The translations under genes were made by a program, and so were the position numbers. Positions 61 through 52,068 of a stretch of 64,000 bases of DNA are shown here, piece after piece. The DNA lies in assembly GCA_029555965.1 (NCBI GenBank), contig JAKQHY010000129.1, forward strand, positions 1,375 through 65,374, in the 5' to 3' direction. The stretch is from Chloroflexota bacterium (GTDB taxonomy: Bacteria; Chloroflexota; Anaerolineae; B4-G1; SLSP01). The notes below the pieces were generated by a model, which saw only the letters and a list, made by a program, of their open reading frames with translations, made no database searches and was not told the origin of the DNA. Each line of letters opens with the position of its first letter. Position 1 is the first letter of the stretch.

Positions 61-2043
61 TCACTGGCCTCCCTCTATAGGAGCTGCGCCCTCCGACGCC
101 GCTCCGTTTTCGTGATCATCCACCGTCTGGTCGGCGGCGCTCCCCGACAATTGCTCCGCGCTCCCCAGCCGCACAAAGGTAGGACGGCCCAACACATTGC
201 CCACCTCGCGCAGCAAGGTGCTCAAGACGGTTTCCGGGTCGCTGGAGCTGCGCACGCGGGCCGTTACCTCGCGCAAAACCCGCTCGCGGGCCGCCCGGCG
301 CTGGGTGTCCTGATACAAGCGCGCGCGGTCTATTGTGGCGTTCAATTGTTCGGTCAACGCATTTAACAACGTCGTTTCCTGCGCCGTCCACGCCCCGCCA
401 TCGGAGGGTTTGCGTCCCTCCACGACTCCAATGATCTGGCCGCCCACCCGGATGGGAATAGCCAGGCGGGTTCCCTCACTTTCATCCACCATCGGCATAG
501 CGGCAGATACAGCCTTAACCATCTCCGGCAACCATACATCCGCCGCCGGGAAAACACCTTGCGAGGTACTGCGATAGGCCAGGTCCGGTCGCGCAGCCAG
601 CAATTTCTGCCAGGCCTCCGATTCCAATTCGCCGCGCAACCGGCGCTCTGCTTCTGCGCTTTCTTGCGTTTGCCGGAACAGGGTCGCATTGCTGATCGCC
701 ACCGCAACCTGATCCGCGAGCGACTGTAAGATAGCCACGTCTTCGGTTTTGAAGGCTTCTGACACGCGGCTCTGCACGTCCAGGGCGCCAATGAGGCGCG
801 TCTGCAACCGCAACGGGAATACCACCTGGGAGCGAGTTTCCGGCAGGTCAGGGTTATCGAACTGGACAGCGTTCACGCCCACATCGCGGAACACGCGATA
901 CTCCCCTTGTGCGAGCACTTGCGCCACACGTTCCGGCGCATTCAACCGCACGCGATAGCCGCGCGCCCGCTGCTGCCGCCCGCCCTCACTCGATACGGCG
1001 CGCAACTCAAGCCACTCGCGCTCAATATCTACCAGAAACAGTCCCACATGGTAAAAATCAAACTCCTCCGCAATTGAAGTCACTACATGGTCCAAGAGTA
1101 TTTCAATATCCAGAACCGCGGCCGCCTCACGCGCCACCCGCGAGGTAGTTTCCAGATAGCGCGCGCGCCGTTCCAGGCTCTCCGTGCGTTCCAGCACCTG
1201 CTGCTCCAGGGTTTGCACCAACGTCTGCGCCCGGGTGGTCATCGTAGACAACGCCCGGCTGAGGTCGCCGATTTCGTCCCGGCGAGACAGAGGTTTCACG
1301 GCCCCCCATTCGCCTTGAATCACCCGCTCGGCGTTGCGCGCCATCATCTGAAGGGGGCGCGTCAGCCAGAAGCCCAGGACCACCGCCAGTCCCACACTGC
1401 CCACACCCGTCACCAGAGCCACGGTCAGGAAGCGTTGGCGGGTAAGCCGGGCCACTGAGGAGAGTTCGTCACGCAATTGTTGGGTCGGCTGGGTGAATTC
1501 GTCCATGTAGGTCGTTGCCACAGCGATCAAGGGTGTATCTTCAATCGGCAACAGCACGGCGTACTTAGCGCGCACAGTGCCATCCAATTCAATCCAATCA
1601 TAGTACCCCTCAGAGCTAGCCCCACCCAGGGCGCCCGAAAAGACGGCCCAAAATTCCGGCAACTTGTCCGCCAAAAGGGATAAATCCTCCCCTGCCCTCT
1701 GAGGGTTGACATGAAGGCGAGTATATCCCTGGTTGTCAATCAGGCCGGTATAACCAGTTTTGCCCACGGGCTGCACCGCGATACTGGCTAATTCCGTATT
1801 GCGCTGTAAGGCATCCATATCAAAAGGGTCTACCTCCGGGTGCCGCCCCAGGTACGCCTGTACCTGCTGTTTGATGGTCAGTGCCTCATCGTAAATGACG
1901 GATTTGCCAATCTCTTCCAGCGCCGCCGCGCCACTGGCGACTGCCAGAGTCTCCATAAAGCGGGTCGTCCAAAAGGAGGCTATCAGGAGTGGCAGCATCC
2001 CGACCAACGCAATGATCACGATCAAACGCACGCGAATGCTCAT
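61..2043 (-). CDS. Membrane sensor: TM-Cache-like-TM-HAMP-S-helix-GAF-split-GAF module, no catalytic domain (array member 1)
   Basis: Two hydrophobic segments; HAMP (RPLQMMARNAERVIQG...DEIGDLSRAL); LEQQVLERT S-helix; GAF (FYHVGLFL...NPDLPETRSQVVFPL...GALDVQS); tail RAARERVLREVTARVRSSSDPETVL. ATG overlaps the upstream TAG. Confidence 0.9.
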   Translation of the reverse strand: MSIRVRLIVIIALVGMLPLLIASFWTTRFMETLAVASGAAALEEIGKSVIYDEALTIKQQVQAYLGRHPEVDPFDMDALQRNTELASIAVQPVGKTGYTGLIDNQGYTRLHVNPQRAGEDLSLLADKLPEFWAVFSGALGGASSEGYYDWIELDGTVRAKYAVLLPIEDTPLIAVATTYMDEFTQPTQQLRDELSSVARLTRQRFLTVALVTGVGSVGLAVVLGFWLTRPLQMMARNAERVIQGEWGAVKPLSRRDEIGDLSRALSTMTTRAQTLVQTLEQQVLERTESLERRARYLETTSRVAREAAAVLDIEILLDHVVTSIAEEFDFYHVGLFLVDIEREWLELRAVSSEGGRQQRARGYRVRLNAPERVAQVLAQGEYRVFRDVGVNAVQFDNPDLPETRSQVVFPLRLQTRLIGALDVQSRVSEAFKTEDVAILQSLADQVAVAISNATLFRQTQESAEAERRLRGELESEAWQKLLAARPDLAYRSTSQGVFPAADVWLPEMVKAVSAAMPMVDESEGTRLAIPIRVGGQIIGVVEGRKPSDGGAWTAQETTLLNALTEQLNATIDRARLYQDTQRRAARERVLREVTARVRSSSDPETVLSTLLREVGNVLGRPTFVRLGSAEQLSGSAADQTVDDHENGAASEGAAPIEGGQ

Positions 2044-4283
2044 AGCCCCTCGCCTTCCTGGATAGCTTTCGAAGTTGGCGCCGCCGCACTGACGCGCTGC
2101 GCGACCATTTCTGGGGTAGCCAGACGCACGACCAATTCCTCAAGGTTGAGGACGCGCCGCATTTCTGCGGCGGCCACCTGTAACACGCCGGTCAATTCGA
2201 CCGGCTCGCGCAGGCGCCCGGTGGTTTCCGCAATGGTGCGCTCGCGCGCTGCATTCAGTTGCGTTTCTTCATACAGGCGCGCCCTTTCCAAAGCCTGCGC
2301 CAGTTGACCAGAAATAGCCTCCAACAAGGCGATCTGATCCGGCGCCCACTGCGACGTGCCTTCCGGGAGGTCGGCGCTCAGCACGGCAATCGTCTGATCG
2401 CGCACCCGAATCGGCACGGTCAAGGATGGCGTTATGCCTTCCTCAGTTTTTTCAATAACCGTCTGTTCGAGCTGAACGGCGCGCCGCATCTCCGGCGCCC
2501 ACACATCCTCTATCGGTCGCAGAAGTGCGCCTTCTTTGACAAAACCGAGAACCGATTGGCTACGCAAAAATGCCAACCAGGCTTCCCGGCTCGCATCGCC
2601 ATACGCCCGGCGCTCGGCCTCTAACGCCTGCTGGGTCTGTCCGAAAAGGTGCGCGGTGTGAATCGCCATAGCGACTTGATCGGCCAGGGTTTGCAAGACT
2701 TCCACATCCTCGTCACTGAATGCCTCCGCGAGCACACTCTGCACATCCAACACACCGATGACCGCATCATGCACGCGCAGCGGTAGGGCCATTTCCGAAC
2801 GGGTTTGCGGTAAATCAGGATTATTGAAAAAATGGCGATCCGCGCCGACATCCAGCGCAATCTGCGACTGGCCCAGTTCGGCAACATAGCCCACGAGACC
2901 CTGCTCGCCAACGCGCAAGCGGTGGCCGCGCGCCAACATACGCTGCCCGCCCTCACTCGAGGCCGCGCGTAACACAGCCCATTCTCCTGGAGAATCCAAC
3001 AAAAAGATGCCAGCGTGGTAGAAGTCGAATTTCTCGCTGATCAGGCGCACAACCCGCGACAACAATTGTTCCACGTCCAACTCCGAGGCCGCGTCGCGGG
3101 CAACCGCTGCGGTCGCCTCCAAATAGCGCGCCCGACGATCCAACTCTTGCGCGCGTTCACCCGCGCGCACAAACGCCTCGCGCAGGTTCGCCGTCATCTG
3201 GTTGAAAGCGTGCGCCAACTCCCCCAACTCGTTCTGGCTGGACTCTGGCACGACGCGCTCAAAATCACCGGAAGCCACAGCGATAGCAGCTTTCGTCATT
3301 ATCTCTACCGGATGCATAATGCGTGACATCTGCCAGGCGAAGCCCCAGCCCCCTATGACCAGAGTGGCGACCGTTAGCAGCAGATTGAACGCCAAACGCA
3401 GCAAGGGTTCGCGAATCAATGCCGTGCGGTCGAAGACAATATCTGCAATGCCGATGATCTGACCAGAATAATCCGTCAACGGCGTGCTCAACACGGTATA
3501 GCTGCGACCAGCAACACGCTGATGCCACAGGACCGGCATACCGCCCAGCACGCGCTGATAACGCTCTTCGTCTGCAAAGAAAGGGTTTTCCAGCGTACTA
3601 TCCTGCAAAATCAAATCCTGAGTTGGGCGCATCACACTAACTGACTGATCTTCAAAGCGCGCAATTTCTGCAATCTCCCGTCGCAAGATAATCTGCCAAT
3701 CACCACCAGTTCGGGACTGGATATCGGCCAACCATTTCGCGCCCATATCCAGACCAAATTCGACGGAGCCAATAGGATAGCCCCGATAAAACATCGGCAC
3801 TACCCCGCGGAGTCCCAAACCGGTGCGCCCAATTTCCAAGCCGCTCACCGGACGCCGATTGGTATTGGCCGCCACCACCGTATGACGAAAACTTGAGAGG
3901 TCGTCGCCATATTGTGTAGGTTGATTCACTCGCAGAAAGGAAGTCGCCGGCGCCAGGTGAAATTGGAATTGGGACACGTCGAAAGCGGTATGGAGGTTCA
4001 CATAGGAGACCTGTAACAATTCCAGCAGTTGTTGACGGTCGCGCGCGGCAAACAATTCCTGAACCCGTGGGTTGTAGGCCACTTCGGTCGCCAAAGCCAA
4101 AACCACCGTCCGGCGCGATTCCAAACTATCCTGCATCCCGCGTTCAAAGCGCTCCAGCGCCTGGCGCTCCTGGTCAGACAGGGTACGCAAGCTGGTGAAG
4201 ATATCAATCAGCGTCAACAGCAACAGCAGCACGCCCAACCACGTCAGGATGCTTCTCAGCAATTTTCGCGTAATGGTCATCAT
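2040..4283 (-). CDS. Membrane sensor with dCache_3-like domain, HAMP, GAF, split-GAF module (member 2)
   Basis: SFLRVNQPTQYGDDLSSFRHTVV...GLEIGRTGLGLRGVVP resembles dCache_3 domains of chemoreceptors. HAMP, GAF and tail are present; GGAGG SD. Confidence 0.9.
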   Translation of the reverse strand: MMTITRKLLRSILTWLGVLLLLLTLIDIFTSLRTLSDQERQALERFERGMQDSLESRRTVVLALATEVAYNPRVQELFAARDRQQLLELLQVSYVNLHTAFDVSQFQFHLAPATSFLRVNQPTQYGDDLSSFRHTVVAANTNRRPVSGLEIGRTGLGLRGVVPMFYRGYPIGSVEFGLDMGAKWLADIQSRTGGDWQIILRREIAEIARFEDQSVSVMRPTQDLILQDSTLENPFFADEERYQRVLGGMPVLWHQRVAGRSYTVLSTPLTDYSGQIIGIADIVFDRTALIREPLLRLAFNLLLTVATLVIGGWGFAWQMSRIMHPVEIMTKAAIAVASGDFERVVPESSQNELGELAHAFNQMTANLREAFVRAGERAQELDRRARYLEATAAVARDAASELDVEQLLSRVVRLISEKFDFYHAGIFLLDSPGEWAVLRAASSEGGQRMLARGHRLRVGEQGLVGYVAELGQSQIALDVGADRHFFNNPDLPQTRSEMALPLRVHDAVIGVLDVQSVLAEAFSDEDVEVLQTLADQVAMAIHTAHLFGQTQQALEAERRAYGDASREAWLAFLRSQSVLGFVKEGALLRPIEDVWAPEMRRAVQLEQTVIEKTEEGITPSLTVPIRVRDQTIAVLSADLPEGTSQWAPDQIALLEAISGQLAQALERARLYEETQLNAARERTIAETTGRLREPVELTGVLQVAAAEMRRVLNLEELVVRLATPEMVAQRVSAAAPTSKAIQEGEGL

Positions 4284-4325
4284 CGCTTCCTCCGGCCTCG
4301 GCCCGGTGATTGCCCGCGCCGCACG

Positions 4326-6515
4326 TTAGCCGCGACCACGCTGCGCCCCGGCAGCCTCTTCATCACTAAGCGCGGCATCCGCCGCCACCATACGGATCAG
4401 GACCCGCTGCAATCCTAGCGCCTGCTGGATTTCCGTTACTGCCGTTTTGAGAACATTTTCCATATCCAATTCCTCGCGCACGCGCCCGGCGATTTGACCG
4501 AGCAGGCGCTCGCGGGCGGCCGCCCGCTGCGTTTCATCAATCAAGCGTTGGTTCTCCGCCGCCAACAGCAATTGTTCCGAGAGCGATTCGATCAAAGCGA
4601 CATCCTCATTGCCCCATCCCGGCTTGTCGAAGGGCTGTTCAAACCCCAAGACTCCAACAATCTGGTCCCCCTGTGCCACGGGGATAACCAACCGGTCTTT
4701 TTGCACCACGGCCTGCTGGTATTGCAACACAGGCTGCGCCTCCGGCACCAGCGACTCCGTGAGGGGTGTCAAACCGGTCGGGCCATATTCATAACCGCGC
4801 ACCGGCCGCGTCTGAATGTATTGTCCCCAAGCCTCGCCCTGATAGCGGCGTTGCGCTGCGTACAGGCGATCCAACGTTGATTGGACCTCGGCAAAGAGGC
4901 GCGCATTCTGCACGGCCACCGCCACCTGATCGGCCATATTCTGCAAGAGCGCAATGTAGGTGCTGTCAAAGGCAGACTCTACCACGCTCTGCACCGTCAT
5001 GGCGCCAATGACCACCGTTCCATAACGCAGCGGCAACGCCAGTTCCGAACGAGTATCTGGCAGGTAAGGATTCTCCAAACGTCCCACACCGTCGCCTTCT
5101 GTCTGACGCACACCGACTTCGCCATTAGCGACACATTGCCCAATCATCGAGTCTCCACCAACCGCCAAACGCCAGCCCTCCGCCATCATCTGCCGTCCGG
5201 CGTCTCCGGTTCCGGCGCTCAAAAGAGCATATTCCCGCGCCTCATCCACCAAGAACAAACCCACATAATACAGGTCAAAGCGATCCCGCACCAAATTCAC
5301 CACTTGCGGCAGCAACTGCGTGAGGTTGAGCAGTGAGGTGGTCGCGCGCGACACTTCAGCCACCGTCTCCAACCCTCGCGTGCGTTCCTCCACGCGCTGT
5401 TCCAAACTACTAATGAGTTCGCGCAGTTGCCGGGTCATTTGATTAAAGGCCAGCGCCAATTGCCCCAATTCATCGGTGCGGCTGCTCTGGACGTTCAAGT
5501 GATAGTCGCCGGCGGCAACTCGCGTGGTGGTCATAACCAATTCCTCTAAAGGCTGTGAAAGGGTGCGCGCAAAGATCAATGCCCCGCCGCCGGCCAACGC
5601 AATCGCCACAACAGCCACGGCAATATTGATGAGTCCGGTAGCCTGCGCACCGCGCAGCACCTCTGCCTGATCCATTTCAGCGATGAGCGCCACCTGCAAC
5701 GCCGGCAGCCACCGGTAGACGCCAAACGCCATAGCCCCACTATAGTTCTGGTAGACGGCCATACCGCTTTGTTGTATAGACACGACATGATCGATCCCCT
5801 CGCTATGAACATAGGTGTTGGGGGTAGCATGTAGCGCCTGGGTTAAGAGTAGATAACGGGGCGTCACCAAGTAGGTTTCGCCAAATTCGCCCAGAATATC
5901 CCGGCGCGCCAGGATATCATTTAACTGGGTCAAGTTTGCCCGACCCACCAACACGCCCACCAGATTATCCAGTTGATCAAAAGCCGGCCGGGCGACAAAT
6001 ACAGCCAGGCGGCCCTGGGTTACGTCATAGTAGGGAGGCTGCACATAAAAACCCTCTTGCCCATACGCGAAATAACGCTCATGGCCAAGGAACTTACGTT
6101 CTTGCACGCGGTCAGTGGAAACGACTACCTCTCCATCCAAATTAAGGACAAATACCTCATCGAAACGTTGTGTGCGCGCCACCATTTTCTGGAAATTCCC
6201 CCGCAGGTAGTCCTGGGCATATTGGGGATTCAACAAGGCGCTCTGGGAGGTCGCCGCCGCCACGCTGTCCAATTCATACGTCGAAGTCAACAGCGTATCC
6301 AGGTCCATCTGCAAGCCATACAACCATGACTCAATGGCGAGGGTTTGCAGATCGGCCACTGAGGTTAGCCGATCAAACGCTTGCTGGCGCGCGTAACGAA
6401 AATTAACCCACACGGAGACACTCGAAGTCACCGACACGGCAAAGAGCGTGATAAACGTAAATGCCATCAATAATTGTGTGCGAAGGGTAACTTTGCGTTT
6501 TTTAGACATGCTCAT
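4326..6515 (-). CDS. Membrane sensor with dCache_1, HAMP, GAF, split-GAF module (member 3)
   Basis: ERYFAYG...QPPYYD...VGVLVGR dCache pattern; HAMP DELGQLALAFNQM; LEQRVEERT; GAF YYVGLFL...AGTG; tail. Confidence 0.9.
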   Translation of the reverse strand: MSMSKKRKVTLRTQLLMAFTFITLFAVSVTSSVSVWVNFRYARQQAFDRLTSVADLQTLAIESWLYGLQMDLDTLLTSTYELDSVAAATSQSALLNPQYAQDYLRGNFQKMVARTQRFDEVFVLNLDGEVVVSTDRVQERKFLGHERYFAYGQEGFYVQPPYYDVTQGRLAVFVARPAFDQLDNLVGVLVGRANLTQLNDILARRDILGEFGETYLVTPRYLLLTQALHATPNTYVHSEGIDHVVSIQQSGMAVYQNYSGAMAFGVYRWLPALQVALIAEMDQAEVLRGAQATGLINIAVAVVAIALAGGGALIFARTLSQPLEELVMTTTRVAAGDYHLNVQSSRTDELGQLALAFNQMTRQLRELISSLEQRVEERTRGLETVAEVSRATTSLLNLTQLLPQVVNLVRDRFDLYYVGLFLVDEAREYALLSAGTGDAGRQMMAEGWRLAVGGDSMIGQCVANGEVGVRQTEGDGVGRLENPYLPDTRSELALPLRYGTVVIGAMTVQSVVESAFDSTYIALLQNMADQVAVAVQNARLFAEVQSTLDRLYAAQRRYQGEAWGQYIQTRPVRGYEYGPTGLTPLTESLVPEAQPVLQYQQAVVQKDRLVIPVAQGDQIVGVLGFEQPFDKPGWGNEDVALIESLSEQLLLAAENQRLIDETQRAAARERLLGQIAGRVREELDMENVLKTAVTEIQQALGLQRVLIRMVAADAALSDEEAAGAQRGRG

Positions 6516-6597
6516 CGTCGTTTTCCCAAATAGCCTGGATGGTGCAGCCCCCCGACGCGATAGACGCCGCTGGGGACAGTCCTCGAATGGCTCAAAC

Positions 6598-7566
6598 TCA
6601 TTGCGTATAAATAAAGTGATTCGTATACAGCGATTCCAACGTCACTGAAGAAGTCAACCAACCTTGAGAACGCAGGGCTTCCTGTGTGCTATGCCAGACA
6701 TTGTCTGCCATCATCCCGGGCAAGGTATCCCCGACATCTATGTACGGGATGGTGGCCGCCCAGGAAGCCTGCTGCAAGGCGGTATCCAATGTGGCATCAT
6801 GCGCCAGGGTCAGTTGAACCGCTTCTTCAGGATGCTCAACGGCATAGCGATAGCCTCGTAACGTTGCCCGCACCATCGCTTCTACCAATGCCGGTTGTTC
6901 GGCAATCAAAGCCGCGCGCGTCACCAGTACGTTCGGATACGCCAGGGCGCCGTAGTCGCTCATGTAGATCAGATTGACGTCCTGACCGGTTTGCCGGACC
7001 GCGACCGCTTCGCGGGTAGCCCAGGCGTAGGCCAGCGCGTCCACCTCGCCGGACAGCAAGGCGTCAATCCCCCCAGCGGTTGGCGTCAAAGTCACTTGTT
7101 GCCCACTCAACGCAGTGCGCGTCAACACCACACTCAGCAGGATGTCCGCCTCGGTATGCAAGTCCGCCGACTGCACCCCAATCTGCGTGCGCGGCAAATA
7201 GATAGGGCGAGTCAACCGGGCCGCAGCCAGGGACATGATCGCCTGGGGATTGCGCCGCATAATGGCAGCGACCGCCATCAAGGGTTGGCGCTGACTGCGC
7301 GCCTGCACCAGCCGGATACCCGAACTTACGGCAAAATCCGTCGTTCCTTCAGCAACGCCGGCCAAAGGGGCGTCCTCCCGCACCAGCAACGAAACATCCA
7401 GTCCCTCCGCTGCATAGTATCCCTGCGTCTGCGCCGCATAAAACCCACTCCATAGCACCGAATGAGCCGCATCCAACTGCACCACAACTTTTTGACGCGG
7501 CGGCGGGGGCGTGGTGCATGACAGCAAGCTCACCACCAACAACAGCAACACTGTATTCCTAAACAT
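6598..7566 (-). CDS. NMT1/THI5 (SsuA-like) family substrate-binding lipoprotein
   Basis: Start re-assigned to ATG 7566 (MFRNTVLLLLVVSLLSC, lipobox LLSC). Motifs GFYAAQTQGYYAAEGLDV and EALVEAMVRATLRGYRYAVEHPEEA are typical of the family. Confidence 0.8.
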   Translation of the reverse strand: MFRNTVLLLLVVSLLSCTTPPPPRQKVVVQLDAAHSVLWSGFYAAQTQGYYAAEGLDVSLLVREDAPLAGVAEGTTDFAVSSGIRLVQARSQRQPLMAVAAIMRRNPQAIMSLAAARLTRPIYLPRTQIGVQSADLHTEADILLSVVLTRTALSGQQVTLTPTAGGIDALLSGEVDALAYAWATREAVAVRQTGQDVNLIYMSDYGALAYPNVLVTRAALIAEQPALVEAMVRATLRGYRYAVEHPEEAVQLTLAHDATLDTALQQASWAATIPYIDVGDTLPGMMADNVWHSTQEALRSQGWLTSSVTLESLYTNHFIYTQ

Positions 7567-13284: not shown

Positions 13285-13293
13285 ACGCAACCT

Positions 13294-14899: not shown

Positions 14900-14940
14900 C
14901 TTCTCATCTCCCAATTGCCAGAATTGACTCAACTCAAACT

Positions 14941-42984: not shown

Positions 42985-43009
42985 CTCCACCTCCGGCGCC
43001 GCCCGCAGA

Positions 43010-45235
43010 TCATGCGCGTGAAACCTCGCCGGCGCCACTGACCTCAATGGTCGTCAATTCGGCTTGCAACAGGCGGCCCAGGGCCTGCACCGTTGTCTTC
43101 ATAATCACGTCCGGGTCCAAAGTCGCACGCAATTGCCCACCGATCTCCCCCACCAGACGGTCACGCGCGGCGCGGTCGCGGGTCTCTTCCAACAAACGCG
43201 CCACCTCCAAAGCCTGGGCGATCCCTTGCGCAGCCTGCTGCACAAATTGCATTTCCTGCGAAGTCCAGGGGTGCGTCGCTGGACGATTCAAACGCAGAGC
43301 GCCAAAAGTTCGCCCGCCCAGCATCCGCAACGGCGACACTAATGTGTTGGCGGCAGTGATATGCGTGGACTCCACAGTGTCGGACGGCATCTCGGTGAGA
43401 TAGGGGATCGGGCGGGTTTCTTCGGGCGTATAACGGTAGCCCAGCAACGCCGAAGCGCGCGCGCGCCATCCCTGTTCTCCCGTTTCCCCATACGCCCGCT
43501 GCAATTCTTGCAACGCCCGCTGACTATCCTGAAATAGTTGCGCATTCTGAATCGCGATGGCGATTTGATCGGCCAGCACCCGCAACGTTTCCACATCTTC
43601 CGTGGAAAAAGCGTTCGGCGCTTCGCTTTGAATATCCAGAACACCCAGCAGACGGTTGCCCACGCTCAGCGGCAGGGCCATTTCCGATCGGGTGGTCGGC
43701 AAATCAAGGCTTTTCATCCACACCGCATCCACATCTACATCCAACGCGATGCGCGGACGCCCGGTGCCCGAAACATACCCCACAATGCCCTGTTCCCCCA
43801 CCCGCAAGCGATGTCCACGCGCTAACATATTCCGCCCCCCTTCGGAAGATGCGGCGCGCAAAACGGCCCATTCCCGGCTTTCGTCCAACATAAAAATGGC
43901 AATGTGATAAAAACCAAACCGGTCGGTGATCAAATGCGCGACGCGCGGCAGCAACTCTTCCACATCCAGGATGGCATTGGCAACTCGGCTGACCTGTCCG
44001 GTGACTGCCAGATATGTGGCGCGCTGTTCCAACTCGCGGGTGCGTTCCGCCACCCGCGACTCCAAGGAGTGAATCAATTCCCGAAGTTGCGTCGTCATAC
44101 TGTTAAAGGCCCGTCCGAGCATACTCAACTCGTCCGGGCCTTCTGCGATCACGGCGCGGCTGAGATCGCCTGCGGCGATGGCATTGACTGTTTCTGTCAT
44201 GCTCGCAATAGGACGAAAAGCCTGACGCAGCGTCAAGAAAAACGCCAGGGCCAACATGGCCACGCCAACCCACCCCACCAACCACGCAGACTGCATAAAG
44301 GAACGCATTCCAGATAGCAGTTCTGCTTCCTGCTGCTGCACCACAATCCCCCAGCCGGGGCCGCCCTCGCGAACCACCGCCCACCAACGGGCATCATCCG
44401 TCGCAAATTTTACCCATGGGCCGCGCCCGGCGCGCAAGGCCTCTACGGGGGCCGTAGTACTCATATCGGTCAACGGTGTTGTAGCGTGCAGGTCCGGGTG
44501 CGCCAGCAGGCGATTTTCGCTGTCCACAATATAAGTGTAGCCAGTATTGCCGACTTGACGAGTCCGCACCTGAGCGGCCACATCGGACAAAGCGCAGGCA
44601 AACATCCCGACGCCCACCAAGTTTCCCTCCCTATCACGGATAGGCATGGCGCCGATCAACGCCGGAGCATTGATTGCAGGATCCAGGGCAACCTGAAAAA
44701 CCTGGGGGGCGCCATCCAGCACCGCCTGAAACCAATCCTGAGCGGCGTAGTGTTCCGGTGGGAGCGCGTCGCTGCGGGTCACATTCATTCCGGTCAGGTC
44801 TAACGTACTCACCAAGTACATGGTGGGGTGAGTCTCCGCCATCATTTCCAGAAGGGCGCGCTGCTGCGCCGGATCCATACTAACAATGGCCGGATCGGAC
44901 ACCAATCGGCTCAAGACGCCTGCGTGAAGGTCAACCCACACCTCGGCATTGGAAAGCAATGCAGCGTTCAAAACTTCCAGGCGCTGGGATTCCTGCTTCT
45001 CCACCACACGCACCGCCGAGACTGTCACCCAGACCACCCCACCCGTTAGAATCGGCGCAGTGATCGCCAATAGCAAGAAGGTCAGGCGCGTGCGCAACAG
45101 CCAGCGTTGCCGCCCGGTGCTGGCGGGATGTCGCAGATTCAATAGCACGAGATAGGCCAGCAGCACTGCTTCCAGGAAAAACGACGTCCAGGCGAACCAT
45201 TGCAATATCTGGCTAAAGGATGGTGTCAGGGTCAT
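43010..45235 (-). CDS. Sensor with dCache_1, HAMP, GAF, split-GAF module (member 19)
   Basis: Start ATG 45235 (ATGA overlap, GGAGG SD); QDWF dCache; HAMP PDELSMLGRAFNSM; GAF; tail. Confidence 0.9.
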   Translation of the reverse strand: MTLTPSFSQILQWFAWTSFFLEAVLLAYLVLLNLRHPASTGRQRWLLRTRLTFLLLAITAPILTGGVVWVTVSAVRVVEKQESQRLEVLNAALLSNAEVWVDLHAGVLSRLVSDPAIVSMDPAQQRALLEMMAETHPTMYLVSTLDLTGMNVTRSDALPPEHYAAQDWFQAVLDGAPQVFQVALDPAINAPALIGAMPIRDREGNLVGVGMFACALSDVAAQVRTRQVGNTGYTYIVDSENRLLAHPDLHATTPLTDMSTTAPVEALRAGRGPWVKFATDDARWWAVVREGGPGWGIVVQQQEAELLSGMRSFMQSAWLVGWVGVAMLALAFFLTLRQAFRPIASMTETVNAIAAGDLSRAVIAEGPDELSMLGRAFNSMTTQLRELIHSLESRVAERTRELEQRATYLAVTGQVSRVANAILDVEELLPRVAHLITDRFGFYHIAIFMLDESREWAVLRAASSEGGRNMLARGHRLRVGEQGIVGYVSGTGRPRIALDVDVDAVWMKSLDLPTTRSEMALPLSVGNRLLGVLDIQSEAPNAFSTEDVETLRVLADQIAIAIQNAQLFQDSQRALQELQRAYGETGEQGWRARASALLGYRYTPEETRPIPYLTEMPSDTVESTHITAANTLVSPLRMLGGRTFGALRLNRPATHPWTSQEMQFVQQAAQGIAQALEVARLLEETRDRAARDRLVGEIGGQLRATLDPDVIMKTTVQALGRLLQAELTTIEVSGAGEVSRA

Positions 45236-46908
45236 TGCGCCTCCCACTGCACCGGTGTCAGATAAATCTGCACTTCATGGGCATCCAACACCCGCCCCAG
45301 TTCTTGGACACTGCTTTCCATAATGGCTGCCGTGCTCGGGTTGCGCCACACAACATCATCCAGACGCCCCAACTGCTCCTGGTAGAACGCTTGACGCCGG
45401 GTCTGCACCAGCAGGCGTGTATTGTCCAACGCGAGCGCCAACCGTTCAGCAGCCGCCTCGATAAAAACGCGCGTCTCGGCATCCCAGTCGCCCTGTTCCA
45501 CCGAGCGGGTAAAAGCCAGATAGCCCAACGGGACATCCCGCGCAATCAAAGGGACCACCAGCAGGTAATCATCCGTTCCCTCAACGGGGGGGCATGAGCG
45601 TATTGCGCGATCTCGTAACGCCTCAGCCGCTAAAGTCTGGACCGCAGCTTCCGGCAACGCGCCGGCGGTATAAGACAGCTTTAACTTTGCCTCCAATAAC
45701 GAGCGCCACCCGGCCGTTGTGTATTGGCTGTACAACGTTCGCATCTCCTGAAGCTGGCCGTTGATCTCTTCCAGCGCGGCTAGCATATCCAGAGAGGCGG
45801 TTACATAGCCGGCAACGACCCGGAAAAGTTGCATATCACTGTCGGAGAAGGTGGCTTCGGTGCTGTGAATATCCAAAACACCGAGCAACTCACCGCGCAC
45901 CACCAGGGGCAAGGCCATCTCCACCCGGCTCAATGGAAACTCCTCAGCCTCATCTGGAGAGAGCACCCGCACCTGTTCGCGCCCGGTTTGCGCCACTTGT
46001 CCTAGCAGTGAGCGCTCGCCAACCCACACAGAAAATCCCTCCGCGACCAGCGCCTCCCCCTGCGCCCCAGCGGCGGCGGCCAGAATCAAGGTTGAACCGG
46101 TGCGGTCGGTCAAGAAGACATTGACTTGATACAAGTCGAGGCTGCGTTCCATATCTCGCACCGTGCGCCACGCCACCATTTCTCGCCGCCGCAGGGAGGC
46201 CAGCGCATTGCCAAATTCGGCCACCCACTGCATCCGCACCGCGTGCAAGTAGGCGTACTCAGCATTTTGCTCGGCTTGCATCCGTTGTGTATCTAACTTA
46301 TTCGCCAGGTCGTGGCTCTTGATCAGCACTTCCCGGAAACGGGATACCAGTTGATTCAAAGAGGTGATCACGAAGGCGCTGACAAACAATAACGTCAAGG
46401 TGTAGCTAAACCAGGCCATAGGTTTATGGGACAAGACCTGAACACTGACCGGTATCTTCAAGATCTCCAGCGAGAATAACCCGGCAAACTCGCTCATTGT
46501 CAACATAGAGAGCGCCAACGCGACAAATCCGGCCCGCCGCCCCAGAAATACCACGGCCATCAAAGGTAACATCAGCAAAAACAAGCGCACATTGCTCGAT
46601 AGTCCCCCGCGAAAGACCGATAACAGCGCAAGGCCATAGGCCAGTGCCAATAAAGCGCCGATTCGCACATGGTAGGGGATGCGCCTAGCCACATAGAGGA
46701 TTCCCAAGGCGCAGAACAAAACGACATACGCCAATCCATACATCCAGTTGCCATCGGTCGCAACATAATACCCACCCACAATCAACGCCGGGAATCCTGC
46801 CAGAAAGAGTACGCGCATGACATGGGTCAACAGCGTATGCCGCAACTCCCGGATTTCGGAATCCGCCGCGGCTACTTCCGGCGCGTTCTGCTTCTGTTCG
46901 TCTCTCAA
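45232..46908 (-). CDS. Multi-TM (MASE-like) membrane sensor + divergent GAF + split-GAF module (member 20)
   Basis: TTG start with GGGAGG SD; about 6 TMs; GAF (SRVEMALPL...GVLDIHS); divergent tail. Confidence 0.85.
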   Translation of the reverse strand: MRDEQKQNAPEVAAADSEIRELRHTLLTHVMRVLFLAGFPALIVGGYYVATDGNWMYGLAYVVLFCALGILYVARRIPYHVRIGALLALAYGLALLSVFRGGLSSNVRLFLLMLPLMAVVFLGRRAGFVALALSMLTMSEFAGLFSLEILKIPVSVQVLSHKPMAWFSYTLTLLFVSAFVITSLNQLVSRFREVLIKSHDLANKLDTQRMQAEQNAEYAYLHAVRMQWVAEFGNALASLRRREMVAWRTVRDMERSLDLYQVNVFLTDRTGSTLILAAAAGAQGEALVAEGFSVWVGERSLLGQVAQTGREQVRVLSPDEAEEFPLSRVEMALPLVVRGELLGVLDIHSTEATFSDSDMQLFRVVAGYVTASLDMLAALEEINGQLQEMRTLYSQYTTAGWRSLLEAKLKLSYTAGALPEAAVQTLAAEALRDRAIRSCPPVEGTDDYLLVVPLIARDVPLGYLAFTRSVEQGDWDAETRVFIEAAAERLALALDNTRLLVQTRRQAFYQEQLGRLDDVVWRNPSTAAIMESSVQELGRVLDAHEVQIYLTPVQWEAQ

Positions 46909-46932
46909 CTCTGCCTCCCTAAAAACTCGGTC

Positions 46933-48831
46933 CTAATCCTCCCCCGGCGGCGCCAGGGACACCAGCACACTCTCTGCCTGTACAGCATCCTGGAGCAACT
47001 GCGCGGATTGCGCCACCATCGTTTCCAGATCAGGAATGCGCAACACCTGTTCGCCAAACTCCCGCAGCCAGCGTTCGCGCCCCACGCGGGTCTGCGCCTC
47101 ATGCAACAGCCGGATCCGCTCCAAGGCCACCGTCGCCAGATTCGTGAGCACGCGCTGAAGCTGCCCCTGGAGTGGGGTAAACTGATGCGGGGTGTTGTAG
47201 GTAATCAAAACCACCCCAAGACACTGTGATTCCATCCGCATAGGCGCCAGCGTCAACGCCAAAACGCCCAATTCGGCGGCAAGATTGGATAATAACCGGT
47301 CCACATCCGCGCTGCCAGAATGATAGGGCATACTCAAATCACCGATTACCAGAGAGGATTCTAACATAGCCCCAAAATTAATGAGATCTCCGATGTGGTG
47401 TATGGCCGCTGCCGTGATATATTGTTCATAAAAACTCATGTCGCCGCCGCGCATTTCGGCTACCAGGTATGCTTGTTCTGCCGGGGGCGTGTGCGAATTG
47501 GGTAAACGGCTTTGGCGGAAGATAAACACTCGCGCCGGGTTAAAGTCGCGCAACGCCCCCAACATCGCGGCGTAGATCTCGCGTTCGGTGCGCGTGGTCG
47601 CCAGTTGATGCGCAAGCCGATACAAGGGGCTGGCCGCCTCCAGGACGGCGGCTTCGTCCCCCAAACGCCGCGCATTGTCCACCGCCACCGACAGCAGCCC
47701 GGCCAGGCCCTGAAGGGCATGCACATCATCCTGATCAAAAATAACTTCTTCGCCGCTGTACACATCCAACACCCCAATCAGCCGGCTGCCCACCATCAAC
47801 GGCAAGGCCGCCTCCGAGCGCACTACGGCCAAGTCCACTTCTGTCGCATAGGCCACATTGCGCCGGCCTTTGGTCACAATACACGGCTCTTGATTGGCTA
47901 ACACCATCCCCACCGCATTCAGGTCGCCGACGCGCCAACGTTGTGAGCGCATGGTCATGCGCCGACCGCCTATTGAGGCAGCCGCATGAAGCTGAACCGA
48001 TTGGCCCTCATCGTCTGTCAAAAAAATCGCCGCGCGGTAGAAATCAAAGTGCTGCACAATGAGGTTCACAGCCTGTTCCAACAGAATTTCAGCCTCAAAA
48101 ACCGTTGCTAACGCCTGAGAGACCTGGGTGCTGGCCTCCAAAAACATAGCCCGTCGCTGCAAATTGGTATTGGCCTCCTGAAGCGTCCGCGTCCGTTCGG
48201 CTAAAACAGCTTGCTGTTCTTCCAGGGAAATAGAAAGAGCCGCACTTTTTTGCAATGCAGTAAGCAAACGAGGAACCAGATAATTGAATGAGGCATAGAG
48301 TCCAATCGTCACAGCGACAAAAATAACCAGCCCAACGAGTAAAGAAAAATGAGGATAGGCGGCTGTCGGATAGAGAGGCGGAACAAATACTCCGGTCACA
48401 ATACCCACAACGAACAGTCCCAGAACAACACAAATCCCGATCAACACACCCAGGCCATGACGCCCACCCAGGAAAAGGGTCGCAAACAGCATGGCGCCCA
48501 GCCAGTAGATGCGCACATCCCGCCCCCAACCGTAAGTCAATAAATCCCCTAACCCCAACCCCAGAAGCACTGCTAAAAAAGCCCACACCCGTAGAGGATA
48601 AGGGATCTGCGGAACAAAAGCCCCGATAATAATCACGCTATAGGCGCCCAGGATGACCGGCGTCAGCCAGAGCGCCTGAGTCACATAGACATAATACAAA
48701 GCGAGCAACACCACCGGAAAAGTTGCCGCCGTAATCATCCGCAACGTCCGCGCAAACAAATTGCGCTGCCAAACGCCCATATCCTCTCTGGACATCAGCG
48801 CATCGGCAACCGGCACTTGTTTCTTACTCAC
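46933..48831 (-). CDS. Multi-TM membrane sensor + GAF + second full-length GAF + tail (member 21)
   Basis: Start re-assigned to GTG 48831 (GGAGG SD, overlaps the kinase TAA). About 6 TMs, two GAFs, tail RVGRERWLREFGEQV. Confidence 0.83.
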   Translation of the reverse strand: MSKKQVPVADALMSREDMGVWQRNLFARTLRMITAATFPVVLLALYYVYVTQALWLTPVILGAYSVIIIGAFVPQIPYPLRVWAFLAVLLGLGLGDLLTYGWGRDVRIYWLGAMLFATLFLGGRHGLGVLIGICVVLGLFVVGIVTGVFVPPLYPTAAYPHFSLLVGLVIFVAVTIGLYASFNYLVPRLLTALQKSAALSISLEEQQAVLAERTRTLQEANTNLQRRAMFLEASTQVSQALATVFEAEILLEQAVNLIVQHFDFYRAAIFLTDDEGQSVQLHAAASIGGRRMTMRSQRWRVGDLNAVGMVLANQEPCIVTKGRRNVAYATEVDLAVVRSEAALPLMVGSRLIGVLDVYSGEEVIFDQDDVHALQGLAGLLSVAVDNARRLGDEAAVLEAASPLYRLAHQLATTRTEREIYAAMLGALRDFNPARVFIFRQSRLPNSHTPPAEQAYLVAEMRGGDMSFYEQYITAAAIHHIGDLINFGAMLESSLVIGDLSMPYHSGSADVDRLLSNLAAELGVLALTLAPMRMESQCLGVVLITYNTPHQFTPLQGQLQRVLTNLATVALERIRLLHEAQTRVGRERWLREFGEQVLRIPDLETMVAQSAQLLQDAVQAESVLVSLAPPGED

Positions 48832-51220
48832 TCTGGCCTCCCGCGGCAAGCTCCATCGGCTTCTCGGCTTCGGTAAGCGCTTCCCCATAACAGGGTAGGG
48901 AAAACGTAAACATACTGCCCTCATCTACCCGACTCTGCGCCCAAATTTGCCCGCCGTGCATTTCCACGAATTCCTTGCACAGGGCCAGTCCCAAACCGGC
49001 GCCCTGTTGCGGATTGCGTCGTGCAGAGCCTTGGTTGAACCGCACAAAAATGCGTTCCAGGTCTTCCGGGGGAATTCCCACTCCGGTATCGCTCACACTC
49101 ACATACACCCAATCGTCCCGATACCAGGCGCGCAAGGTAATCCGTCCTTTGTAGGTAAACTTCGCAGCGTTATTAAGTAAATGCACCAAAACCTGGCGGA
49201 TGTGAGAGGGATCAATGCGCAACAAGGGCAGATCTTCAGGGATGTCCCGCACCAGCTCCACATCCTTACCCTGAACCAACGCGGTAGCAGTGGGCATCAC
49301 CCCGGCAACGACTTCGATAAGATGGATAGGCTGAAGTTTCAACTCCATCAACCCGGCCTGGATCTGTGAAATTGCCAGGATATCGTTGATCAGGAACAGC
49401 AGGCGCTGGCTATCCGCGTAGACGCGCTCCATATCCTGCTGCTGCAATTCCGTCAGTGGGCCATCCACCCCCTTGATCAGCAACCGCGAGAAGCCAATAA
49501 CGGTGTTCAAAGGTTCGCGCAAAGCGTGCGACATATTCGCCAAGAATCGCGCCTTGAAGGCTTCCGCCTCCTCCAAATGCTGCGTTGCCACCCGCTCCCG
49601 CTCGTAAGCCCGTGCATTTTCGACCGCAATAGCAATCTGATTGGCTAAGAGTTCCAACACCTCTAGCTCGTCGGGCTGCACCCCTTCATGCTCGGTGCTC
49701 AGGGCGGCAATCGCGCCGATGACCCGCTCCCCCATCCGCAACGGCACGGCGACCCGACTTAACGTGCGGCGATACCAATCTACTTCTTCGTGAGTTTCCT
49801 GGTGCTCTACCTGGGAAACGCGCTTGCGAATGGCCCGTTCGACGGTGGAGCCGTCGCCTGGGTATACATAATCGGCCCAGCCCCCGATTTCTCCCTCCGC
49901 GCTAGGACGGGCGCCCCGCACGTCTGGGCTGAGCGCATTCAGCGCTGCCGCGCCCCCTCCGGGTTCCACCATATAGATAGCAACCGACGCATACATAAAA
50001 CTGTCACGAATCAGATCGGCCATCTGCATAAACAACAAATCCGGATCGCGCACTGAGGTGATCGCCTGACTCACCTCCTGGCTGGCCTGCAAATGGAGCG
50101 CGCGCCGCTGAATCTGATAGTTCGCCCGTTGCAACATTCGTGTGCGATCGACTACCTTCGCTTCCAGGTCCGCATACAGCGATTTCAGTTGCGCGGCCAT
50201 ATCATTAAACACGTAGGTCAGGATGCCGATTTCATCACGCGATGTGACCGCCAGATGTTGATCCAGCTCCCCTTCTGCCATCGCCAGCGCGGATTCCGTC
50301 AAGCGAATCACGGGCAGGGTGATCTGCCGGATCACTACCGCGGCAATCGCAGTAGTGACCAACGCAACGGCCAACACCAGGGCGATGAATGTTGCCGCGA
50401 TCAACTCGACCGACTCCAACGTCTGCGATTGAGGCTGCTCTACCAAAATACCCACGTCCGCATTCGGCAGAGGGTAGTATGCTCCCGTCACCGCAATAGC
50501 AACGTTGTTGACATACGTGCCGCTGCCCGGCTGGCCGCCTGGCGTCCAACCATTCATCGGCTGCGAACACGGCGTCGTCGTGCTCGGCCAGAGACACATC
50601 TTGTGAATCAAATAGACCCGAGTGGTGCCATCGGACACGCCCTCGTGGTGGATCACTCGTTCGATCATGGCGCCATCCATACAAAAAAGCAGGGAGCGAT
50701 CTTGATATTCAATTGGTAAAAAAACAGTTGCACCCAAATCAGAAACGGCAAACTCCGCCGGGGAAGAAAACAAGTTGGCCCCTGAGATCGTGAGGCGAAA
50801 TTGATCCCAGGCCTGAGCACACTCGCCGGCGGTCCAACGGGACTGTTCCTCCGGCTGCCACACCACCACGCCAGTCAAATCGGGGATTTGCTGCGTGAGG
50901 GTCGTCCACCACTCCGTGTAATCATCGGTGTTGTCGGCCAATTTCACCGACAGCAATAACACCGATTGCAAATCGTCAAACCAACGCTCAAGTTCCTCGC
51001 CCTTGAGGGCAGCGACCGCCAATAACTTACTTTCTACTTCACGCTGCACATTCTCGCGGTTTTGCTGCACAGCGTAACTGACCGTGAGCGTCAACGGCAA
51101 AATCGTCAAAATTAGAAACGCAGTCAGCAAAGTGCGACCTAAGCCGCCGCGCATACCGGTGGTAGGGACTGGTCGGGGGACGTTCGCAGATAAACGTTCC
51201 CCGCCTATTCCGGCTCCCAT
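48824..51220 (-). CDS. dCache-HAMP-GAF sensor histidine kinase (HisKA + HATPase_c) with non-canonical H-box
   Basis: H-box FLANMSHALREPLN; N-box HLLNNAAKFT; G1 DTGVGI; F IFVRF; G2 GAGLGL. GAGGAGG SD. Confidence 0.92.
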   Translation of the reverse strand: MGAGIGGERLSANVPRPVPTTGMRGGLGRTLLTAFLILTILPLTLTVSYAVQQNRENVQREVESKLLAVAALKGEELERWFDDLQSVLLLSVKLADNTDDYTEWWTTLTQQIPDLTGVVVWQPEEQSRWTAGECAQAWDQFRLTISGANLFSSPAEFAVSDLGATVFLPIEYQDRSLLFCMDGAMIERVIHHEGVSDGTTRVYLIHKMCLWPSTTTPCSQPMNGWTPGGQPGSGTYVNNVAIAVTGAYYPLPNADVGILVEQPQSQTLESVELIAATFIALVLAVALVTTAIAAVVIRQITLPVIRLTESALAMAEGELDQHLAVTSRDEIGILTYVFNDMAAQLKSLYADLEAKVVDRTRMLQRANYQIQRRALHLQASQEVSQAITSVRDPDLLFMQMADLIRDSFMYASVAIYMVEPGGGAAALNALSPDVRGARPSAEGEIGGWADYVYPGDGSTVERAIRKRVSQVEHQETHEEVDWYRRTLSRVAVPLRMGERVIGAIAALSTEHEGVQPDELEVLELLANQIAIAVENARAYERERVATQHLEEAEAFKARFLANMSHALREPLNTVIGFSRLLIKGVDGPLTELQQQDMERVYADSQRLLFLINDILAISQIQAGLMELKLQPIHLIEVVAGVMPTATALVQGKDVELVRDIPEDLPLLRIDPSHIRQVLVHLLNNAAKFTYKGRITLRAWYRDDWVYVSVSDTGVGIPPEDLERIFVRFNQGSARRNPQQGAGLGLALCKEFVEMHGGQIWAQSRVDEGSMFTFSLPCYGEALTEAEKPMELAAGGQSE

Positions 51221-51624
51221 ACCTCCTCACCTTGCAGGACGCGGCGTATTTGTTCGGGGAATCGCTCCGGATCCAAAGGCTTGCCGATAAACCCGTTAAA
51301 TCCAGCCTGCCGCGCGCGGCTGAGGTTCTCGCGGGAGACGTGGGCCGTCACGGCCACAATCGGCACATCCGTGAAACGTTTATGCGAGCGTAATGAAGCC
51401 AACGCCTGAAACCCGTCAGCGTCCGGTAAATTCACATCCATCAACACCAGACTGACATTGCCCAGCGTCTCGGCAAACTCCAGCACTTTCCAGCCGGAAG
51501 CCTTCCACTCGCACTTTTTCACACCCAAAAAGGCCAGCAAGCGCGTCATCAAAATGAAGTTGTTGAGATTATCCTCTACAATTAGGATGACCGCATCTTT
51601 AGGGGGGGTCGGCTTCCATACCAT
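51205..51624 (-). CDS. Single-domain response regulator (receiver only)
   Basis: ILIVEDN, LVLMD(VNLP), VTA and GKP motifs are intact. Confidence 0.92.
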   Translation of the reverse strand: MVWKPTPPKDAVILIVEDNLNNFILMTRLLAFLGVKKCEWKASGWKVLEFAETLGNVSLVLMDVNLPDADGFQALASLRSHKRFTDVPIVAVTAHVSRENLSRARQAGFNGFIGKPLDPERFPEQIRRVLQGEEVWEPE

Positions 51625-51666
51625 AGCTGCAATCCTTTACATAGAATACTGAATAGCTAAAGCGCG

Positions 51667-52068
51667 CTACCCGCGCGCATCCAAAAAACGCCGGATCTGA
51701 CGCGGCAACTCGTCCACGTCAATCGGCTTGGGGATATAGCCATCGCAACCGGCCTCCAACGTCTTCTCCTTATCTCCCAACATCACGTTGGCGGTCATAG
51801 CAATAATGGGGATCTTTTTGATTTCTGGGATGGCCCGAATCTGTTTGGTCAATTCATAGCCATCCACTTCCGGCAAATTCATGTCCATCAGAATCAGATC
51901 CGGAATTTCGCGCAAAGCCAACTCAATACCCGTCCGACCATCTTCGGCCTCAATGACAACGTAATCTTCTACCAAAAGGATGCGGCGCACCAACATACGA
52001 TTGCCAGGATTGTCTTCAATATACAAGATTTTTTCACCACGACCGCTAGTTTCCTCGTCAAAGAACAT
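51667..52068 (-). CDS. Single-domain response regulator, DivK-like
   Basis: ILYIEDN, LILMDMNLPEVDG, AMTANVM and PKPID motifs. Start ATG 52068 with GGGAG SD. Confidence 0.93.
   Translation of the reverse strand: MFFDEETSGRGEKILYIEDNPGNRMLVRRILLVEDYVVIEAEDGRTGIELALREIPDLILMDMNLPEVDGYELTKQIRAIPEIKKIPIIAMTANVMLGDKEKTLEAGCDGYIPKPIDVDELPRQIRRFLDARG

Follow-up and report, generated by a model that had tools for sequence, protein, structure and literature searches.

The DNA analyzed here is a 64,000-nt window from the draft genome of an uncultured Anaerolineae bacterium (G000, 85% complete), and it holds the first 52 kb of a large array of signaling genes. The complete array comprises 46 genes on one strand over 95.4 kb, with a biggest internal gap of 200 nt, and it runs from two CheY-like receivers and a histidine kinase (HK1) through 35 kinase-less sensors to a hybrid kinase (HK2), which comes last. 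The sensors have very different inputs and share a C-terminal module, consisting of a GAF-derived core and a short tail. That many sensors share a few kinases is well supported by the gene context. Because the sensors have no catalytic output, we think it probable, on balance, that they would signal by contact with the array kinases through this module and that the two receivers would carry the integrated output.

A single locus of kinase-less sensors

An earlier note on this DNA described a ∼52-kb array of 28 consecutive minus-strand genes ending at position 61. The open reading frames (ORFs) between 61 and 52083 bear out the 28 genes and the maximal gap of 82 nt, with junctions from -170 to +82 nt when the longest possible ORF is taken as the gene, as was done throughout. 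The array does not end there, however, but continues on a second contig. A six-frame search of the whole genome with a hidden Markov model (HMM) of the tail gave strong matches at two places only, the window contig (C33, 21 matches) and the end of contig C162 (14 matches). The ends of the two contigs are identical over exactly 141 nt (C33:1-141 = C162:75130-75270), and joining them gives one unbroken PAS-GAF-core-tail ORF of 868 aa (a 873-codon open frame). In the sister genome G001, the entire array lies on one 204-kb contig with the same gene order. Given the exact overlap, the intact ORF, and this synteny, we conclude that the array runs across both contigs. All of the tail-bearing genes in the genome (35/35) are found in this single locus. 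Beyond the window start there are 14 further sensors, three solute-binding proteins, and HK2, and the array ends at C162:33233. In total it encodes two receivers, HK1, 35 tail proteins, four solute-binding proteins, three switch genes, and HK2, the solute-binding proteins and the PP2C/slr1658/slr1659 switch being interspersed among the sensors; the one kinase counted in the earlier note thus becomes two, the second outside the window. An overlap of 141 nt is typical of an assembly-graph break at k=141; this break falls inside a PAS-GAF sensor gene and was probably caused by paralogous repeats.

The tail HMM (45 conserved columns) matches 21 window proteins, with domain E values of 7e-12 to 3e-19 and matches stopping 1 to 46 residues short of the C terminus. 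The number of members is that given before, whereas the shared tail, put at ∼55 aa, is conserved over only ∼45 aa and is followed by a variable extension of 5 to 46 aa with 13% mean identity. As had been claimed, none of the 21 window sensors contains a HisKA, HATPase, GGDEF/EAL, cyclase, MCPsignal, STAS, or HTH domain (Pfam, E<0.01), nor was an output domain seen in the 11 of 14 off-window sensors scanned. The claim of diverse inputs on a conserved cytoplasmic part also stands, with the N-terminal 230 aa mutually unalignable (median local score of 35) and the cytoplasmic segments 33 to 40% identical among sensors. Inputs include dCache_1, dCache_3, Cache_3-Cache_2, MASE11, a LacI-type binding fold, six PAS domains in one protein, HK_sensor_dom_bact, and multiple transmembrane (TM) segments without a family match; about 28 of the 35 sensors have N-terminal TM segments. 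The cytoplasmic part is not poor in domains, each sensor having one complete and one partial GAF.

The common layout is (HAMP)-GAF1-long helix-core-tail, where GAF1 is a full-length match to PF01590 (positions 1 to 133). The core opens with a stretch of ∼55 residues containing an invariant Trp and a gYrY hairpin and continues with the block LavPirvrGqviGvl...W..eE..Lle.l..QlalALEnARLyeet, after which comes the tail, aaRErL..Eit.riR.SLD.d.vL.tav.Ei...L....v.vRL. The C-terminal module covers only the last third to two-thirds of PF01590; positions 46 to 133 match on the core, and the tail resembles positions 1 to 45. In profile-profile comparisons, the block LavPirvr...Lyeet corresponds to GAF strands 4 and 5 plus helix 5 (E of 7e-17), while the Trp/gYrY stretch has no GAF similarity, so that only the last 63 core columns are detectably GAF. 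For the tail, hhalign gives an in-register alignment to the N-terminal helix-helix-strand of GAF1 from the same family (E of 1.9e-4), and an HMM of block plus tail matches all GAF-GAF junctions of HK2. The tail is therefore, as far as sequence comparison can tell, the start of a further GAF, a stub formed by the first helix-helix-strand and ending after strand 1. Two other explanations of the tail were rejected. A His-less DHp helix was suggested by the resemblance of IRESLD to LREPLN of HK1, yet hhalign found no match to a DHp alignment of 12 array kinases. Read-through that would complete the truncated GAF is contradicted by the downstream genes, which start with TM segments or Cache domains and not with GAF strands.

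AlphaFold2 models of single chains of the two small members g20 (409 aa, pLDDT of 86) and g07 (216 aa, pLDDT of 81) agree on a four-stranded sheet, a second tail helix, and an unpaired terminal segment, and in both, helix 5 runs into the first tail helix as one continuous helix of 46 to 47 residues (319 to 364 in g20). In Foldseek searches, the g20 model matches single and tandem GAF structures, best the tandem GAFs of PDE2A, PDE5A, and CyaB2 and the GAF-PHY unit of phytochromes, and the g07 model finds no complete GAF (best E of 0.2 over ∼59 residues). The sensors resemble these tandem-GAF and GAF-PHY modules in the long helix connecting GAF units; they differ in that the second unit has shrunk to four strands and helices, the third stops after strand 1, and no effector domain follows. 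Mean-field direct coupling analysis (DCA) of 243 core-plus-stub sequences (effective number of sequences [Neff] of 173), scored on the top 60 couplings, placed 14 pairs within the sheet against 6.2 expected. Within the stub, nine pairs linked helices 1 and 2 (1.8 expected) and six linked helix 2 and the strand (1.1 expected), and sheet-stub pairs were depleted (3 versus 13.9 expected). By coevolution, the stub behaves as a self-contained helix-helix-strand unit, an autonomy that fits a surface made for another protein.

The core HMM (116 positions) is full length in 155 of 177 tail proteins from 13 genomes, and, hybrid kinases apart, the few core-only matches are sensors of another family (f4) whose tails fall below thresholds. 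The first sensor after HK1 or the receivers (g25 type, MASE11) keeps the stub and lacks the Trp/gYrY core in every array (located in G013, G014, G029, G037, G083, G059, G179, and G274), and is a positionally conserved subtype. In G017 (C1:117814-122178), a 1454-aa ORF has an internal tail and then a second complete sensor, which may reflect two naturally fused array members or else a frameshift in sequencing. Homologues run to thousands and are labeled only "GAF domain-containing protein." A global census with a 102-position profile yielded 11,753 clusters at E<=1e-30, but this profile is too unspecific for a count, and its top matches are giant multi-GAF proteins with 10 to 21 junction matches.

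The features of the window are listed below in array order; sensor entries are based on Pfam domains and the tail HMM, with the core HMM and TM prediction where applicable.

52251..52280 (-), sigma-70-like promoter candidate TTTGCA-18-TATAAT, 10/12 consensus matches, a consensus match only
51667..52083 (-), g28, receiver 1, CheY-like single-domain REC, first array gene (Pfam Response_reg, 2.2e-27)
51205..51624 (-), g27, receiver 2, single-domain REC of a distinct orthogroup (Pfam, 4.5e-20)
48824..51220 (-), HK1, 2TM-HAMP-GAF-HisKA-HATPase with the atypical H-box SHALREPL (Pfam)
46933..48924 (-), g25, MASE11-GAF-tail without the W/gYrY core, "first sensor" subtype
45232..46908 (-), g24, MASE11-GAF1-core-tail
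43010..45247 (-), g23, dCache_1-HAMP-GAF1-core-tail
41143..43047 (-), g22, TM-HAMP-GAF, an extra GAF-like insert, and tail; full core unmatched
38918..41146 (-), g21, dCache_1-HAMP-GAF1-core-tail
37692..38921 (-), g20, 409 aa, long N-terminal helix-GAF1-core-tail, modeled with AlphaFold2
34846..37659 (-), g19, soluble, LacI-type periplasmic-binding-fold domain-GAF1-core-tail
32489..34840 (-), g18, Cache-like-GAF1-core-tail
30749..32464 (-), g17, 4TM-GAF1-core-tail
29002..30738 (-), g16, MASE11-GAF1-core-tail
26869..28998 (-), g15, dCache_1-HAMP-GAF1-core-tail
25155..27038 (-), g14, 5TM-GAF1-core-tail
20591..25153 (-), g13, 1520 aa, soluble, six PAS and three GAF domains, then core-tail
19055..20572 (-), g12, 2TM-GAF1-core-tail
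16758..19058 (-), g11, HK_sensor_dom_bact-GAF1-core-tail
14941..16761 (-), g10, switch phosphatase, 5TM-GAF-PP2C (SpoIIE; Pfam SpoIIE, 1.6e-37), weak SiaA similarity
14327..14944 (-), g09, slr1658 family, DUF6272, GHKL-like, weak SiaB-kinase similarity (NF052618, NF047703)
13955..14305 (-), g08, slr1659 superfamily, STAS-like (NF047705, 148 bits)
13294..13944 (-), g07, 216 aa, N-terminal leader LEREKADLELMAEMTTEHSD, bare core, and tail; likely adaptor
10462..13290 (-), g06, multi-TM plus dCache_1-HAMP-GAF1-core-tail
7559..10465 (-), g05, 7TM plus dCache_1-HAMP-GAF1-core-tail
6598..7632 (-), solute-binding protein, NMT1/THI5-type (Pfam NMT1, 2.6e-40)
4326..6515 (-), g03, dCache_1-HAMP-GAF1-core-tail
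2040..4283 (-), g02, dCache_3-HAMP-GAF1-core-tail
61..2043 (-), g01, Cache_3-Cache_2-HAMP-GAF1-core-tail, last complete window gene

Among the nonsensor genes, the two receivers, HK1, the PP2C protein, and the slr1658 and slr1659 proteins agree with the earlier account, from which the NMT1-type solute-binding protein was missing. This protein is a probable periplasmic co-sensor, and its gene is also found inside the arrays of G001, G013, and G020. The promoter candidate sits in the 233-nt gap upstream of g28. Just before the array, also on the minus strand, is a gene for a 913-aa protein with seven predicted TM segments (52317-55058) that matches nothing in Pfam or NCBIfam; a TPR protein and an NAD-dependent epimerase come next. 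This 913-aa protein showed no link to the array.

Kinases, receivers, and conservation of the frame

HK2 is a soluble hybrid kinase of 2380 aa with the layout PAS-multiGAF (∼10 GAFs)-HisKA-HATPase-REC-REC and a canonical H-box (SHELRTPL). Outside the sensors, the full-length core occurs in hybrid kinases only, once per complete HK2 of this order (aa 879-988 in G000, with an independent E value of 9e-18; up to 1e-27 in others) and twice in the partial G017 protein, and in a tree the HK2 core regions group among the sensor sequences. A complete GAF and then the kinase come after this core in HK2; the sensors thus have the layout of an HK2 that breaks off once strand 1 of the following GAF has been reached.

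The H-box of HK1 (window 49505-49540) reads SHALREPL in G000 and G014 and SHELREPL in G013, G029, and G037, with Glu at H+4 conserved across HK1 orthologues and Ala at H+1 in two genera (G000 and G014). In HisKA kinases, Thr or Asn at H+4 is needed for phosphatase activity and the H+1 residue is the catalytic acid. Judging from these residues, HK1 may be phosphatase deficient owing to Glu at H+4 and, in G000, a weak autokinase owing to Ala at H+1. An HK1 query matched metagenome-assembled genomes (MAGs) only (Anaerolineae, Chloroflexota, Thermoflexus sp., and Anaerolineales), with no cultured strain name among the matches.

Both receivers are REC-only proteins of 138 to 139 aa with intact active-site residues; g28 has the acidic pair, phospho-Asp, Thr, and Lys, and g27 carries the motifs CEWKASGW and GKPLDPDRFP. 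They belong to two orthogroups, each 55 to 75% identical across arrays (55 to 74% for g28 at other array heads and 56 to 75% for g27) and ∼40% identical to each other. One locus thus encodes HisKA-HATPase kinases with a phospho-His (HK1 and HK2) together with phospho-Asp receivers, as in a two-component system.

We sampled 41 relatives belonging to the genus, family, and order of G000 and annotated 13 more arrays. The sensor family was found in 41 of 41 relatives, and every array with visible ends (G001, G013, G014, G020, G029, G037, G083, G059, G143, G179, and G274) has the frame REC-REC-(HK1)-sensors-hybrid kinase around 4 to 35 sensors. In this order (G001, G013, G014, G017, G020, G029, and G037), the arrangement, wherever both ends could be seen, is REC-REC-HK1-sensors-HK2 with 7 to ∼35 sensors, and solute-binding proteins are included among them. 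In family f4, which includes complete genomes, two receivers and 4 to 12 sensors are followed by a ParA/MinD-type ATPase, the hybrid kinase, a pyridoxal phosphate (PLP) enzyme fused to a receiver, and a transporter of the EamA type, without HK1. The PLP-dependent enzyme of this fusion is of the PALP, threonine-synthase-like type (G083 C1:1844014-1846650; also in G059, G143, and G179) and may provide an enzymatic output that the G000 array lacks. ParA/MinD-type ATPases (AAA_31, 2.8e-51; CbiA; BcsQ-like) lie in the arrays of G083 (C1:1849784-1850572), G029 (C2:88566-89426), and G037 (C11:63887-64816). The G000 array has no ParA-like gene, and the nearest homologue in that genome (C9:6417-7217) lies beside a gene for a 939-aa HAMP protein.

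Across the phylum, an even sample of 251 Chloroflexota genomes contained multicopy sensors in 21, and three further single matches are ordinary multi-GAF kinases (two inspected). A single-copy g27-type receiver (E<=1e-47, 53 to 59% identity) was present in 21/21 sensor genomes and 0/230 others, and it stood at the array head wherever checked. In family f6, one genus has both sensors and the g27 receiver and three genera have neither. In the complete genome G083, the 10 matches listed, of 12, all lie inside its single array of 12 sensors. In a tree of GAF1-core-stub sequences, 25 of 31 G000 paralogues are nearest to a sequence from another genus, and recent tandem amplification is thereby ruled out; with nearest neighbors mostly in other genera, the paralogues are old and maintained.

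The sensors are clustered, their frame is constant, and their co-occurrence with the g27 receiver is perfect, as a system of many receptors and few transmitters predicts, and in this the proposal of the earlier note is upheld. Nor are the homologues scattered, as that proposal could not have accommodated; across Anaerolineae they are framed by the same signaling genes. Of the genes expected to accompany them, the receivers and a histidine kinase do so, while the slr1658/slr1659/SpoIIE switch does so in few relatives. On this comparative evidence, the conserved hub is the two receivers and the hybrid kinase, with HK1 added in this order.

Proposed mechanism and competing explanations

In the mechanism that we propose, dimers of the transducers would dock on HK2, or form mixed oligomers with it, through core and stub. 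HK2 would be the likeliest target, since it too contains the core, with a complete GAF and the kinase after it, and HK1, where present, would also be contacted. Contact would set the kinase/phosphatase balance toward the two receivers, and g07 would plug the input of a phosphorylation-controlled switch into the same core-stub interface.

Several points weigh against this mechanism. Contact between sensors and kinases is suggested by gene context, and the structural models are of single chains. HK2 does not gain GAF units in proportion to the sensors that it accompanies (∼10 units with 35 sensors in G000, 3 with 7 in G037, and 2 with 12 in G083). The f4 arrays lack HK1, and their HK2 carries no more than a short core-like piece at the N terminus, which suggests that the docking site, if any, is not uniform. 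The depth of the coevolution analysis is modest, and a missing coupling in cis is no proof of a partner in trans. The co-occurrence of receivers and sensors is confined to one class, which makes the events non-independent, and a single 95-kb transcript is unlikely.

A more ambitious form of the contact model, which we regard as speculative, would make the array the equivalent, in GAF parts, of the chemoreceptor lattice. Dozens of kinase-less transducers would join the hybrid kinase in a membrane-associated higher-order complex glued by heterotypic contacts, in which the stub of one protomer docks on or completes the reduced core of a paralogue or of HK2. The complex would be positioned in several lineages by the ParA/MinD-type ATPase, and many chemical inputs would converge on the phosphorylation of the two receivers.

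Two further explanations seem unlikely to us, to a similar degree. The sensors could be decoys or antikinases, truncated HK2-like protomers that form dead-end heterodimers through GAF1-core and inhibit HK2 according to ligand state, a sign-specific version of the contact mechanism that can be likened to RetS blocking GacS. Histidine kinases need two DHp helices per dimer, and a sensor layout that is HK2 stopped before the kinase, with HK2 cores nested within the sensor tree, is what such protomers would look like. Most sensors, however, are membrane-anchored parallel dimers with HAMP while HK2 is soluble, and pure inhibition leaves unexplained why a precisely truncated stub is conserved in all 35 paralogues. 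Alternatively, each sensor could be an autonomous receptor acting through GAF1 or the stub on targets other than the adjoining kinases, for instance by binding or sequestering a small molecule or an unlinked effector, and the clustering would then reflect no more than co-regulation and tandem duplication. Small ligands are common partners of GAF domains, and the dependence of the contact mechanism on gene context is compatible with this. Yet ancient paralogues that work independently would not be expected never to disperse, as seen in G000 and among the matches listed for G083, nor does independence account for a receiver and hybrid-kinase frame kept across families while sensor number varies from 4 to 35, or for the strict presence of the g27-type receiver.

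The split of PF01590 positions between core and tail would also be expected of a circularly permuted GAF that completes itself, either within one chain or by symmetric swapping in a homodimer, the tail then being a structural element only. Both AlphaFold2 models, with their continuous helix and unpaired last strand, together with the coevolution pattern, in which tail-sheet couplings are depleted and those inside either part enriched, disfavor such completion; Foldseek recovers no complete GAF from the module, and the detectable GAF similarity is limited to the end of the core. We therefore consider a permuted GAF improbable.

The remaining alternative concerns the PP2C/slr1658/slr1659 triad (g10, g09, and g08), which lies in the middle of the array with translationally coupled junctions. 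g09 scores 217 bits with NF052618 (cutoff of 200) and 207 bits with NF047703 (cutoff of 100), and g08 exceeds the NF047705 cutoff of 100, so both adjoining genes are above NCBIfam cutoffs and stand with a PP2C gene, as in slr1658/slr1659 switches. In Synechocystis, a disrupted slr1658 is reported to hinder recovery from iron limitation (PMC7555055). Genes of the slr1658 family were found in 5 of the 41 sensor-bearing relatives; G001, G002, and a 60%-identical MAG have them within the array, and G006 and G008 have them outside any array. In the 60%-identical relative (L122, 8041-10639; GCA_016931835.1, JAFGEA010000257.1), two tandem slr1658/slr1659 pairs without PP2C are followed by the g07 orthologue, which means that the composition of the switch is variable.

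g07 appears to be the client of this switch. Its N-terminal 60 residues (LEREKADLELMAEMTTEHSD) recur at the N termini of proteins adjoining slr1658/slr1659 in G006 and G008, outside arrays (phmmer E values of 1.6e-12, 4.6e-9, and 2.7e-5; the His varies). In G000 the leader is found on g07 only, and g07 orthologues always come directly after slr1658/slr1659 pairs. From its sequence, g07 is likely an adaptor in which a docking leader is joined to a bare core and stub, and this fusion suggests that core plus stub is an interaction module.

A stressosome-like arrangement with the switch as the central hub on which all sensors converge would suit the triad's position and coupling and the joining of leader to core and stub in g07, but we give it very little credence, with the family in so few of the 41 relatives although all have sensors, with the switch outside any array in G006 and G008, with PP2C replaced by a second slr1658/slr1659 pair in the 60%-identical relative, and with a common sensor module that comes from GAF and not from STAS. 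Phyletic distribution thus largely refutes the switch as a general hub, and the place given to it in the shared hub by the earlier note has to be withdrawn; because the slr1658 family occurs in just those 5/41 relatives, two of them with the gene outside arrays, the switch is an accessory input of this genus.

Relation to known systems and meaning

The array resembles chemosensory arrays in that numerous receptors differ in input but have a constant cytoplasmic tip and no catalytic output, in the use of HAMP as the membrane-proximal transducer, and in the few kinases and single-domain CheY-like receivers encoded alongside. ParC/PpfA ATPases position chemoreceptor clusters, and the ParA/MinD-type ATPase inside the arrays of several other lineages recalls them. 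In contrast, the kinases here are of the HisKA type and the constant module derives from GAF. The absence of che genes and of RsbR-type STAS receptors, already pointed out, is confirmed: MCPsignal (PF00015) was found neither in the 21 window sensors (E<0.01) nor in 11 of the 14 others (E<1e-3 to 1e-4), there is no CheW-like gene or CheA-type kinase among the 46 array genes, and no methylation genes were seen in the array. With the stressosome, the array shares paralogues that combine variable N-terminal sensors with a conserved C-terminal module and, in this genus, PP2C, GHKL-like, and STAS-like proteins encoded alongside as in the RsbU/V/W switch. It differs in that the common module is a GAF fragment (hhalign) with no STAS match on any sensor, the switch is missing from 36/41 relatives, the conserved partners are histidine kinases and receivers, and the array contains no sigma or anti-sigma factor.

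The nearest biochemical precedent for contact between sensor and kinase is CvnF8-CvnA8 of Streptomyces, in which a stand-alone GAF protein encoded in the kinase operon binds CvnA8 and stimulates its ATPase activity and autophosphorylation (PMC13343842). There, as with NreA, one small soluble GAF protein serves each kinase, whereas the arrays described here encode as many as 35 transducers, which are large, mostly membrane-bound, and equipped with inputs of their own, HAMP, core, and stub. In Staphylococcus, the output-less GAF protein NreA is encoded with the kinase NreB and modulates it. In the multikinase network of Pseudomonas (RetS, LadS, and GacS), heterodimerizing sensor kinases converge on one kinase via contacts between homologous cytoplasmic modules; those partners are complete kinases at scattered loci, while the sensors described here lack DHp and CA and are strictly clustered. 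The switch proteins g10, g09, and g08 match the PP2C, slr1658, and slr1659 components of SiaABCD and slr1658/slr1659 switches, with a weak likeness to SiaB, and their apparent client is g07 and not, as in SiaABCD, a diguanylate cyclase.

We found no published description of this array in the literature. Anaerolineae are abundant in sediments, sludge, and anammox reactors, and if the proposed mechanism is true, a whole class of bacteria wires its sensors to kinases in an undescribed way, with input and transmitter split between proteins so that up to 35 receptors share two kinases and two receivers. Such a system would be a third example of many-to-one integration beside chemoreceptor arrays and stressosomes, built from GAF parts, and would give a function to thousands of entries now labeled only as GAF proteins. 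The small proteins g07 (216 aa) and g20 (409 aa) and cultured Anaerolineaceae with arrays of 4 to 12 sensors make the idea directly testable, and the truncated-GAF stub is a candidate new protein-protein docking module.

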